DNA of 64,000 nucleotides, from the NCBI RefSeq assembly GCF_002571385.2, contig NW_019217844.1, positions 335,605 to 399,604 of the forward strand. The letters are read 5' to 3'. This stretch comes from Stylophora pistillata. Its lineage: Eukaryota. Under the pieces are notes generated by a model. The model ran no database searches. It was not told the DNA's origin and saw nothing but the letters and a program-made list of their open reading frames with translations. Shown here piece by piece: positions 9,101-41,688 of this stretch (within the stretch, counting starts at the first letter, position 1; each line of letters starts with the position of its first letter). Both the position numbers and the translations under genes were made by a program.

Positions 9101-12100
9101 ATTATCAATTTCTTGACAAAATGGGCGTGGCAGTAATATGTAATAGGTCACCCTCCCTTTTTTTTCGTTGCACCCTTGATTGTATCACCATGACGTGCTT
9201 AATCTTAAACCTGCTTGTATTTTCATTGTAGGCATTTGTGAAGGATTACATGATATACCTGGTCAGACTTCTGTTAGGCTGTGAACAATCACCTGGATCA
9301 GGATATCTCTCTTCAGTAAGGAAACAATGTTTGAAAAGACAACTTGATAATGAAGTTTTATACAATAGATGTAAACTGTCTGCTTCAGTTAGCATAGCGT
9401 GTTCAGTTAGCATAGAGTCTTAAAGTGAACAGTAACGGCAAATAGTAAGAAGGGAAATATACTAACTAGCCAATGAAACTCTAAGTAAAAACAAGGAATC
9501 TGTCTCAAGCGGGGAAAACAAGAATAACTGAGAAGTGGGTTTTAAGTTTTACATTTGAAGGGTTGAAGAAGTGTCGTGAGTTTTGTGAATTAATGACAGA
9601 GCATAGTGGAAAAAACAGCAACAACAAGGAAAAGCTGGATTATTTTGTCACCTTATTAACCTGCTCTTAAAAAAGCATGAAATGGTCGACACTAACCTCA
9701 GCCGTTATAGAAATGATGTTTCAAAAGCACTAGCTTTGTAACGTCGAAATTGCATACCAGGCAGTACAGATTCAGTATAGCTATTAACACTTTGTATTTC
9801 ACTAGCTGAAAATCACTGAAGATAACATTTGGATTGAAACATATGGAAGGCTTTTCCAGCGACTTTGCTCGACAACGTTTGCCATTCCTATTGGTCTCTA
9901 TCGATCACATATTCAAGAGGTAATCAAGGCATTCGTGGAATACAACATAGCGTGCTTGTTGACTTACGTTGCCTATCTTTTAACCTGGTCATGAAGGTTT
10001 AGGAACTCACCTGATAGATCATGTACTCATTGCTAACAAAAACAAATGTTGATTTGTCTCTTTAACAAATGGTAAACACCACACCGTACACTATTGAGTT
10101 ATGGATGCACGCGGGAGGTTGCTAAGCACGAAAGAAGCGTAAGAGTCGCTCGAGGCGATAGCCGAGAGCGACTCTAGCTTCTTGAGTGCTTAGCAAACCT
10201 CCCAAGTGCATCCATAACTCAATAGTGTACGCTGTGGTGTTTACCATTTGTTTTATAACATAACATTGATACATTGTAGCTAAAGAGTTCCCTTTTATTT
10301 AACAAATCTTACGTGACCAGAAAAAACAAGCGCGCGCGGAAAAATAGTCTTTGCATTTGCTCACGTCAGCAGCGTACACCCATGGGCAAATGGGGGACGC
10401 TAAATTGACCAATCAGAGCGCGCGCTTTACTTTGGTTATGTTATAATAATAAATCGTTCAGTTAGCATAGAGTCTTAAAGTGAACAGTAACGGCAAATAG
10501 TAAGAAGGGAAATATACTAACTAGCCAATGAAACTCTAAGTAAAAACAAGGAATCTGTCTCAAGCGGGGAAAACAAGAATAACTGAGAAGTGGGTTTTAA
10601 GTTTTACATTTGAAGGGTTGAAGAAGTGTCGTGAGTTTTGTGAATTAATGACAGAGCATAGTGGAAAAAACAGCAACAACAAGGAAAAGCTGGATTATTT
10701 TGTCACCTTATTAACCTGCTCTTAAAAAAGCATGAAATGGTCGACACTAACCTCAGCCGTTATAGAAATGATGTTTCAAAAGCACTAGCTTTGTAACGTC
10801 GAAATTGCATACCAGGCAGTACAGATTCAGTATAGCTATTAACACTTTGTATTTCACTAGCTGAAAATCACTGAAGATAACATTTGGATTGAAACATATG
10901 GAAGGCTTTTCCAGCGACTTTGCTCGACAACGTTTGCCATTCCTATTGGTCTCTATCGATCACATATTCAAGAGGTAATCAAGGCATTCGTGGAATACAA
11001 CATAGCGTGCTTGTTGACTTACGTTGCCTATCTTTTAACCTGGTCATGAAGGTTTAGGAACTCACCTGATAGATCATGTACTCATTGCTAACAAAAACAA
11101 ATGTTGATTTGTCTCTTTAACAAATGGTAAACACCACACCGTACACTATTGAGTTATGGATGCACGCGGGAGGTTGCTAAGCACGAAAGAAGCGTAAGAG
11201 TCGCTCGAGGCGATAGCCGAGAGCGACTCTAGCTTCTTGAGTGCTTAGCAAACCTCCCAAGTGCATCCATAACTCAATAGTGTACGCTGTGGTGTTTACC
11301 ATTTGTTTTATAACATAACATTGATACATTGTAGCTAAAGAGTTCCCTTTTATTTAACAAATCTTACGCGACCAGAAAAAACAAGCGCGCGCGGAAAAAT
11401 AGTCTTTGCATTTGCTCACGTCAGCAGCGTACACCCATGGGCAAATGGGGGACGCTAAATTGACCAATCAGAGCGCGCGCTTTACTTTGGTTATGTTATA
11501 ATAATAAATCGTCAGTTCTTGAAAGATCATAGATCTCTTTGTATAACTAGTCGTCCTCTCACAAACGACAAGTGCAGTGAAGACGAGATGCTTTGCTTGC
11601 ATTTGGACAAAATTGCCCCTCTACCAGCAGTTTGTTCCACAGTTTCCATCTTTGCGTTCTTACTCAGGAGGAGAGTATTGATGCCTTCCCAAGGATGAGA
11701 AAAAAGGAGACAAGGGACATCTCAGACATCATCGAAAACAGGATGAAAGTTTTGAACATTACTGGAACTCGTAAGTCGAGACTTACGAAAAATTGTACAA
11801 AATTGAGGGCGATCGTGTCGTCTTGTTGTCCGGGTTAGGGTATTCTTTAAAAGGAGTACTGATGTTCTGGAAACCAGAGTGAAAGTAATTATCAGATTCA
11901 AGTAAAGATGAGTCTATTACAGTCTATGTGACACTTTGTGGAATCCAGATGAATTGTTTGTTGTGTTGGTGTGGATGGAAATTATTCTTTTCAGGCAATT
12001 TCTACATAATGCGAGCTAGCGATCAACACTTTTATAGTAATTCGTATATGTTGCCATTTTCTATCACTGTGATAGCTTAAGGTTTGGGCTTCTCATTTTA

Positions 12101-13584
12101 TTTCTCTGAATGATCGCAAAAGAATATTTCTTTTTTTTTGTTTTTTGTTTTTGCTTTTGTAGAGCTCAACATGTAATTACTGCATAAATGTACACCGTGA
12201 GCACCTCACTGTAGAGATTGTTATACTTTTTTTGCAGCCGATATGACTCAGAGGTCGGGTAATTCCTACGTGGTGGTCAACCCTAATCCCGAGTTTCGAT
12301 TACAAATCGGTGACATCATGTAAGTAGCAGAGAGAGCTCTTTCCTGTTTGGTTTCTTTAGATGTAGCCCCGAGATTAGACTACGAATAGTCCCTCGCCAT
12401 AAGTTTTAAGCGGGAATAATTCGTGGGCCTCGCTCCAGAGTCACTCCCAGAGTTCCGTGTGGTGCGTTAACATCAGTGCATTCTTCGCTGATTTTTATTA
12501 GGGACCTTAAGAAACCACGACGGCGACGGCAACGAGGACGTGGAAAAACAAGAGATCTAATTGGCAGAACAATAGTTTAGCACGTGCGTTTTGAAACTTT
12601 GTACATTTCTTGGCCGTCCTATGCAAAACAACAACGACCTTAAGCAATCACGAGGCGACGGCAACGAGGACGTGGAAAAACAAGAGATCTAATTGGCAGA
12701 ACAATAGTTNAGCACGTGCGTTTTGAAACTTTGTACATTTCTTGGCCGTCCTATGCAAAACAACAACGTGAAATCGCCAAAATTTGCGTCGTCTGCGAAC
12801 CGAAACCGCGACGGCAAATTATTTTAATTTCCATTTGGAACTCAAAGGCTACTTTATACGTCATGCTGAAGTTGAGCTGTGGCGCTGTATGAGACAGTAA
12901 GCTCCTGCAGCCATTTTTTAAACTCTAACTAAGAGTAGAAATTCATTTTTTAATCGAAGTCTTCCTTGGCGTCGCCGTCGGGGTTTCTTAAAGTCCCTAA
13001 TTGACTCGCATGACAGACCTCGCCGAAAAGGAAGGATTTCGAGTTAATAATTCAACTCCTCATTAGTAACGTCTCACATTCTTATCTGAAATTCGGCACG
13101 TACATTACGTTACGCTCAAGTTTATCTTTGAGTTGTTTTTAACGTGTTTCCTTGTGCAACTACTTATTTCCTAAGTAGATATAACTCGTTTATAAGCAGT
13201 CCCGTTATTTTTGTGTGAAGTTCTTGAGAGCAGGCGTTTTCAACCATTACTTGGTTGCTCATTCTGGGAATTTCTGTATTGATTGGATCGTTTTGTACCG
13301 CCGGATGAAAAGCAAACGGGGATAACAAAATAAACGAGGAACTTGACGCTAGAAACATACTTCCGAATTAAGGTTAAATTAAATTTATTAGCATGCTCAC
13401 ACCCAGTTTTAAAGTCAGTTAGTTACACTTACCGTAAGACGCAAGTGGTCACATTGATTAAAGATTGTTTGATTGATTTTCGTTCAGTTACTTGATTCGT
13501 CCATGCAACACAAGCATGTCAGATGCAGAGGAGGAACCAACCGATCCAGATAGGGCGGACGACATTCCAAGTACTTCTCTGTGA
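142..13584 (+). CDS. KCNT: Potassium channel subfamily T (Slo2/Slack/Slick-like), C-terminal RCK region; 5' part lies upstream of the window
   Basis: GT-AG exons in consistent phase: 142-278, 488-551, 801-909, 1507-1615, 2490-2630, 2913-3175, 4064/4067-4331, 4733-4841, 5141-5316, 6146-6217, 6656-6793, 7412-7562, [one exon missing], 9232-9315, 9806-9919 (duplicate 10861-10974), 11668-11770, 12238-12319, 13488-13584 (TGA). The peptides [84 protein letters not shown] and [14 protein letters not shown] match KCNT1/2 as I recall them. Confidence 0.93.
7783..7975 (+). mobile_element. Penelope-like element terminal fragment with degenerate hammerhead motif
   Basis: TCCGAGGAAGGGCTAACGCTCGAAACGTCAGC (7831-7862) lies between 28-bp inverted repeats (7783-7810 / 7894-7921) and is followed by CCCACCGACGCAGC..CAGTTTCTTT. 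This resembles cnidarian Penelope-like terminal repeats. Confidence 0.65.
8205..9007. repeat. 73-bp tandem minisatellite, 11 copies
   Basis: The unit AGAAAATGTTGAAAAGTTTAGTTAAGCGTATCTAAGATCCTTCATTACGGCAAATTCGCCTTAAATTTATTTA recurs every 73 nt (TGTTG at 8211, 8284, 8357 ... 8941). Confidence 0.97.
9401..11510. repeat. 1055-bp tandem duplication containing a KCNT exon
   Basis: 9401-10455 is repeated at 10456-11510. I saw only one difference (CGTGACC vs CGCGACC). Confidence 0.95.
10064..10446. mobile_element. Double-palindrome non-autonomous element (second copy 11119-11501)
   Basis: A ~190-bp hairpin at 10064-10252 abuts an arm bounded by TTATAACATAAC / GTTATGTTATAA. Confidence 0.7.
12501..12997. 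mobile_element. MITE with ~30-bp TIRs, flanked by TA
   Basis: GGGACCTTAAGAAACCACGACGGCGACGGCAA ... TTGGCGTCGCCGTCGGGGTTTCTTAAAGTCCC, with TA on both sides and an internal ~133-bp duplication containing an N. Confidence 0.8.
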
Positions 13585-41519: not shown

Positions 41520-41589
41520 AATTATTATTTTGTAAGAAGAAACCGGATTTTTTTAGCTCCCTTTTGATTTTAAGCTGACGCGTACGCTT

Positions 41590-41688
<99 letters not shown>

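Follow-up and report, generated by a model that had tools for sequence, protein, structure and literature searches.

Three hairpin-bearing elements in the window

We analysed a stretch of 64,000 nt from Stylophora pistillata (GCF_002571385.2, NW_019217844.1, positions 335,605-399,604, + strand), referred to below as the window, which carries three hairpin-bearing elements labelled A, B and C. All positions are given in window numbering, and all three elements are described on the + strand. A preliminary description of this DNA had proposed that three sequence-unrelated insertions share one layout, namely an imperfect hairpin with a GC-rich apex followed by an arm closed by a perfect inverted repeat. 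Imperfect hairpins with the apices that it named were found in both copies of A, in B (the apex lying on the reverse strand) and in C, and in each case the arm follows directly and is closed by the 11-13 bp inverted repeat that it had given.

The first copy of element A occupies 10062..10446 (385 bp), with a hairpin of 189 bp at 10064..10252, in which tandem G.A mismatches lie on the + strand, and an arm at 10253..10446 closed by a 12 bp inverted repeat (10253-10264/10435-10446). The second copy, at 11117..11501 with its hairpin at 11119-11307, differs from the first by one base; it is present as previously noted, but instead of being a separate insertion it is part of a tandem duplication with a 1055 bp unit at 9401..11512 (9401-10457/10456-11512), the breakpoints of which lie approximately 10 bp past the end of A at short microhomology. 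This duplication may be missing in another individual or may be an assembly artefact, and a 1069-base contig of run X17 is seemingly unbroken across its left breakpoint. Element B spans about 21679..21993 (approximately 315 bp), its hairpin running from about 21677 to about 21832-21836 and its arm (21833-21993) being closed by a 13 bp inverted repeat; the left end of B falls within an (AT)n run, which prevents its placement to a single base. Element C spans 41381..41688 (308 bp), with a hairpin at 41383-41498 and an arm at 41499-41688 closed by an 11 bp inverted repeat. It sits between EGF-coding stretches (EGF repeats at 40059-40450 and from 42260), and its position is therefore likely to be intronic. 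The CCAAT or ATTGG boxes expected near the distal ends were located at 10409 in A, 21944 in B (ATTGG), and 41640 and 41667 in C. The earlier coordinates held in general, except that the left ends of A and C begin two bases further out, with TTAAC, at 10062 and 41381.

Hairpins of 70 bp or longer numbered six in the window, compared with none in 20 simulated 64 kb windows. Elements A, B and C proved mutually unalignable, as had been claimed: with blastn at word size 7, the top cross-hit was 27 bp at E 0.2. No recombinase open reading frame (ORF) was found within the window, where the single tblastn match (7874-7984) covers 37 residues and came from one query.

Recombinase-bearing parents of A, B and C

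The genome contains 91 matches to DUF3504, and 100 loci were taken around these and around matches to one A-like protein; a recombinase match was present in 99 of them. Comparison with these loci indicates that A, B and C are internal deletions of elements of 2.0-2.4 kb that carry a DUF3504 tyrosine-recombinase ORF in the same genome, a parentage that is observed directly. Both ends of A flank a recombinase ORF in loci L164, L175 and L162 (end identity 77-89%), both ends of B do so in L198 (89-92%), and both ends of C in L128 and L130 (85-96%); in addition, the distal end of B precedes the ORF in L140 and L184. Relative to the parents, the deletion breakpoints are sharp and lie near 10354 in A (position 293/294 of the element), near 21848 in B and near 41550 in C. 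These results bear out two earlier suggestions, that the elements are non-autonomous relatives of tyrosine-recombinase (Crypton-like) transposons and that the inner arm stands in place of a cargo ORF, since in all three families the longer genomic copies hold the recombinase ORF within the arm. The rolling-circle origin offered at the same time finds no support in the coding content of the parents.

The parents are filled by one recombinase ORF, their only protein, which begins just inside the distal end and is directed towards the hairpin; the gene of the parent of A would read on the - strand of the window. This placement of the ORF makes it likely that the CCAAT box is part of the recombinase promoter. 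Writing the arm repeats as b and b' and the two sides of the hairpin as a and a', the layout in gene direction is b - promoter - recombinase ORF - b' a - hairpin - a'. An apparent GT..AG intron is kept near the ORF start. The DUF3504 score exceeded the cut-off in L130, in L131 and, for L140, in the C-terminal part; some parent ORFs also gave a weak Phage_integrase match. The recombinase lineages of A, B and C are 26-31% identical, a divergence that accounts for the unrelated DNA of the three elements. The catalytic R-H-R-Y residues, whose retention distinguishes Cryptons from domesticated DUF3504 genes, are complete in L131 (a sister lineage of A, in which R-K-H-R-H-Y is retained), in L128 and in the database homologues P0001 and P0002, which are 90-92% identical to L130; in L140 the catalytic residues are kept around an in-frame stop. 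A predicted structure of P0001 (92% identical; mean predicted local distance difference test score, pLDDT, 77) gave QRICH1, Cre and XerA as the best fold matches. A phmmer search of the PDB returned no match. The homologues found did not include any named reference protein of CryptonA or CryptonV, those from corals being labelled KIAA1958-like.

A, B and C are almost certainly non-autonomous Crypton derivatives; the CryptonA label follows from the DUF3504 criterion used to define that group (PMC3212892). They thus belong to a known superfamily, and only the architecture of their ends is unreported in the literature covered; the 'candidate structure-defined mobile element class' of the preliminary description was too strong a term.

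Two further observations were made at recombinase loci. At L149 (G000:C329, near 113-116 kb), two A-like hairpins enclose a pair of broken recombinase copies in opposite orientation. Upstream of L130, the Crypton interrupts another ORF-like fragment of integrase type, possibly DIRS, a label given by reading of the sequence.

Copy families, termini and insertion sites

A genome search gave 2308 candidates for A, 1994 for B and 2208 for C, and the best-scoring 40 per family, a choice that favours full length, were scored. On this basis, we identified at least 41 near-full-length matches to A (98-100% identity), at least 40 full-length matches to B (B itself and 39 at 93-96%) and at least 48 near-full-length matches to C (96-100%). 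In 40 arbitrary control windows (196,660 non-N bases), we detected three A, three B-type and four C matches; incomplete matches there lay at window edges or assembly gaps, save for one diverged B-like hairpin. A, B and C alone thus account for ten matches in 197 kb of control DNA, and the layout may be a structural mark by which much of the repeat content of corals can be classified. The copies are therefore not unique, and hairpin and arm travel together between fixed termini. In the reads, we also observed sister subfamilies with the ends of C but other breakpoints, and the C hairpin joined to a different arm.

Some apparent exceptions were set aside. Loose ends at 11307 that suggested hairpin-only copies are reads of the outer hairpin end mapping on the inner end, and one apparent hairpin-only copy (L237) and one arm-only copy (L230) both adjoin assembly gaps. 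Arm-hairpin-arm loci were considered as fold-back products and dropped, as the flank of L016 equals that of the unrelated L024 and the arms of L077 differ.

The termini were read directly and are fixed, with TTAAC at the left in A and C and ATAA at the right in A, B and C. Neither end is an inverted copy of the other, long direct repeats are absent, and no structure of terminal inverted repeats (TIRs) with target site duplications (TSDs) was found, in agreement with the earlier view that these are not ordinary miniature inverted-repeat transposable elements (MITEs). A TSD was absent in 62 of 84 insertions, as that view would have it; the remainder carry at most 2-5 bases. Flanks and ends do have a short AT-rich core in common. 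In 16 of 28 A insertions, this shared core amounts to only 0-1 base; in C, ATAA or ATAAT is often found both in the flanks and at the element ends. Insertion occurred before a T in 21/28 cases for A, 23/32 for C and 11/24 for B.

Eight non-array insertions had a paralogous empty site, rows from tandem arrays having been removed beforehand. Three of these sites are clean (L008, L030 and L054) and show neither duplication nor loss, so that gap-free insertion is observed directly at three sites. The others were excluded, L046 and L060 because they lie in simple repeats, L038 because it is ambiguous, and L013 and L018 because their junction bases differ, although they are gap-free. No empty allele was detected among the rows listed for reads and contigs on 10600-22600 and 41000-42100, where unique depth was approximately 1-4 per raw run and a further 64 and 90 joints fell outside the listing, so that this absence is uninformative.

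Copies form head-to-tail stacks and also sit at the ends of other copies. In raw reads, the tail-to-head join occurred 5, 0 and 2 times across three runs, and in three contigs, compared with hundreds of reads of the ends.

The internal junction and the computed fold of one strand

The junction between hairpin and arm is the reverse complement of the joined ends, as read in tandem copies, minus TT in A and C; this internal complement is likewise a direct observation, approximate in the case of B. In the computed fold, two helices of one strand abut, so that both ends of the element meet on the internal junction. In A, position 3 pairs with 191 and position 385 with 192, and in C, position 3 pairs with 118 and position 308 with 119.

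Among nine relatives of the A hairpin, double changes kept the pair in 91 cases and broke it in 12, with 73 single changes, and the arm repeat of A relatives also changes on both sides. In 21 hairpins oriented by their arms, A.G mismatches outnumbered C.T mismatches (92 vs 19), whereas G.T and A.C were even (33 vs 30). The A.G bias tracks the geometry of hairpin and arm in both orientations of the gene relative to the hairpin, and so speaks for DNA rather than RNA.

A strict detector of the hairpin-plus-arm layout found it enclosing 16 of 99 recombinase loci, whereas none of the 40 arbitrary windows used as controls gave a call (Fisher p 0.006); the loci are not independent, and the 16 positives include paralogues and the doubtful L136 and L189. 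Among the 16 calls, the hairpin lay downstream of the gene in 10 and upstream in 6. At L122, L135, L144, L181 and L211, the hairpin is upstream of the recombinase gene, the opposite of the order in A, B and C; an inversion of the arm between its repeats would give such an arrangement.

Proposed mechanism and its alternatives

We propose that A, B and C are gene-less deletion derivatives of three CryptonA-type transposons that may move as a folded single strand, which the recombinase would take as its site. We regard this reading as evenly balanced, and give the same weight to a role for the folded strand as such. In the proposed route, a recombinase supplied in trans would free one strand and join its ends on the splint formed by the internal junction. 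One strand exchange would then take place with a double-stranded target that is AT-rich and similar to the joined ends, and host replication would resolve the exchange, so that the donor copy would stay and a new copy would arise without duplication. A one-strand exchange resolved by replication is the more tentative part, possible rather than probable. The invariant ends, together with the minimal core in the A insertions, are more easily reconciled with a one-strand exchange than with an exchange of both strands across 6-8 bases of homology. By analogy with known single-strand systems, and with the same reserve, animal Cryptons might be eukaryotic single-strand recombinase transposons, in which the site would form only when the strand folds and the ends meet on the internal junction, one exchange plus replication amounting to copy-and-paste.

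Several points weigh against this proposal. We infer the folded-strand mechanism from the layout, and neither an intermediate nor an activity was observed. Tail-to-head reads do not count as evidence of circles, their numbers being those that genomic arrays predict. No intact parent with the own ends of A or B was found, L164, L175, L140, L184 and L198 being broken, and in L130 the first catalytic Arg is replaced by Gly. The fold search placed the integron integrase (2a3v, E 1.4e-3) below Cre. The strict detector failed on 83 of the 99 recombinase loci, including the known parents L128, L130, L175 and L198. The two-base offset cannot be checked in B, for which no tandem join was found. The 21 hairpins fall into about eight related groups, L142 and L136 leaning in the opposite direction, and among ten automatic clusters seven favoured A.G and three C.T (p 0.34). 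Compensatory changes in palindromes can, moreover, arise by template switching without selection. Finally, the apex of B flips: among 20 readable copies, five carry one orientation, nine the other and five are symmetric hybrids, with one not listed. The related-apex layout described earlier is thus present as to the apices, but its polarity is not fixed.

The serious rival is the classical Crypton route, in which a double-stranded circle would be excised via short terminal cores and reinserted at a similar core; the internal junction would then be a second, inverted recombination site, serving for example an amplifying inversion, and the hairpin an accessory binding site or a cruciform. Inversion by Flp is known to drive amplification of the yeast 2-micron plasmid. 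The circle model is the one given in PMC3212892, where tyrosine-recombinase sites are described as inverted repeats of 11-13 bp, a length that the arm repeats here share, and clean excision has been reported for an algal CryptonF (10.1101/2022.05.23.493040). The ATAA or ATAAT shared by C flanks, the closeness of the recombinase fold to Cre and the arm-hairpin-arm arrangements in the assembly are all consistent with it. It accounts poorly for A insertions with a core of 0-1 base and leaves the G.A mismatches kept on one strand unexplained, and the arm-hairpin-arm loci may be assembly chimeras, as the flank that L016 shares with an unrelated locus suggests. On balance, we consider the circle unlikely, although it is the strongest competitor of the folded strand.

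A division of labour, in which a Helitron-type HUH enzyme or a host pathway would make, and possibly insert, the single strand and the recombinase would only resolve or integrate it, appears improbable. The folded-strand reading does require a source of single strands, tandem arrays occur, and the 5' T, insertion before T, asymmetric inverted repeats and hairpin match the second Helitron type in PMC8969392; against this, the 2.0-2.4 kb parents are filled by one recombinase ORF and the layout is tied to recombinase loci, no genome search for HUH genes with these ends having been made. A DIRS-like route, with reverse transcription of an RNA copy in trans and restoration of the ends by way of the complementary junction, would explain why that junction complements both termini side by side, like the internal complementary region of DIRS-1 (PMC7192593), but is very improbable, given that the parents have no room for a reverse transcriptase and keep an apparent intron, and that the G.A strand follows geometry, not transcription.

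If the folded-strand proposal is true, it would represent single-strand copy-and-paste similar to that of integrons and CTX phage, which has not been shown for any eukaryotic element in the literature covered. Such a recombinase, inserting a folded single strand at short AT-rich sites with no duplication, would also be attractive as a tool. From the anatomy described here, the substrates, cut points and mutations needed for a test can be specified exactly. The copy number of Cryptons has been stated as a puzzle (10.1101/2022.05.23.493040), and the hairpin layout offers a testable idea of how they multiply.

Comparison with known systems

Entries for Eulor5/6 reportedly mention hairpins. These families have been linked to Cryptons by their termini (PMC5753468). 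Our literature search, with Repbase, Dfam and subscription papers outside its range, found no account of the hairpin-plus-arm layout. In the available text of PMC3212892, no terminal repeats are recorded for animal Cryptons, with 'n.d.' entered for all CryptonA, and fungal CryptonA are described in PMC13465315 as being without detectable repeats; in the part of PMC8969392 covered, a short direct repeat is the sole Crypton mark named.

The elements of the window resemble CryptonA (Kojima and Jurka 2011, PMC3212892) in their single DUF3504-type tyrosine recombinase, in their animal hosts, which include cnidarians, in the size of parents (2.0-2.4 kb here vs 1.2-2.3 kb) and derivatives (308-385 bp vs 353-554 bp), in the far greater abundance of the derivatives and in the lack of TIR or TSD. 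They differ in the long terminal hairpin, the offset 11-13 bp repeat pair and the internal complement of the end junction; the word 'hairpin' does not occur in the available text of that paper. Fungal and oomycete Cryptons have a 4-6 bp terminal direct repeat that is identical in all copies and is reported absent in animal Cryptons (PMC3212892); here, many C copies show a loose ATAA/T core, and 16 of the 28 A insertions show 0-1 base.

Integron attC sites (PMC2727003) and CTX attP(+) (PMC4246890) share with the elements a tyrosine recombinase, diversity of sequence with conservation of structure, and tandem stacking; their sites form by intra-strand pairing of two inverted half-sites and one strand is preferred, features that are putative here. 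Those systems are bacterial and biochemically demonstrated, whereas here the mechanism is deduced, the recombinase gene lies within the element, the site would be complete only on joining of both ends, and the predicted fold does not resemble IntI more closely than it does Cre. DIRS-1 (PMC7192593) likewise has a tyrosine recombinase and an internal stretch complementary to both termini, and inserts into pre-existing copies, but its long inverted terminal repeats, gag and reverse transcriptase have no counterpart here. Helitron2/Helentron elements (PMC8969392) agree in the 5' T, insertion before T, asymmetric inverted repeats, a hairpin and the absence of TSD; their product is an HUH Rep-helicase and their hairpins are small, in contrast to the tyrosine-recombinase parents and 115-200 bp hairpins found here. 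The ends that are not mutual inverted copies, the lack of TSD in most insertions and the gap-free empty sites separate the elements from DDE-type MITEs.

Other features of the window

A separate hairpin of 122 bp at 26128-26249, for which no arm was found, has relatives in L088 and nested inside L198, the parent of B. Another, of 86 bp, at 59646-59731 lies beside a second tandem duplication (59822-61953, about 1066 bp, 98% identity), and a 73 bp unit is repeated in 11 identical copies at 8204-9007. Ordinary-looking inverted-repeat elements were observed at 12497-13001, 27629-28070 and 41714-41991, the first and last of which are multi-copy by reads.

Among the genes, a large EGF-repeat and laminin-G gene extends over 40059-54445, with one frame of 1426 codons and about 31 EGF domains, and contains three near-identical units of 114 bp at 52184-52525. 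A PTB/PID-domain frame lies at 19833-20903 on the + strand, and a ligand-gated ion channel frame at 55796-56950 on the - strand.

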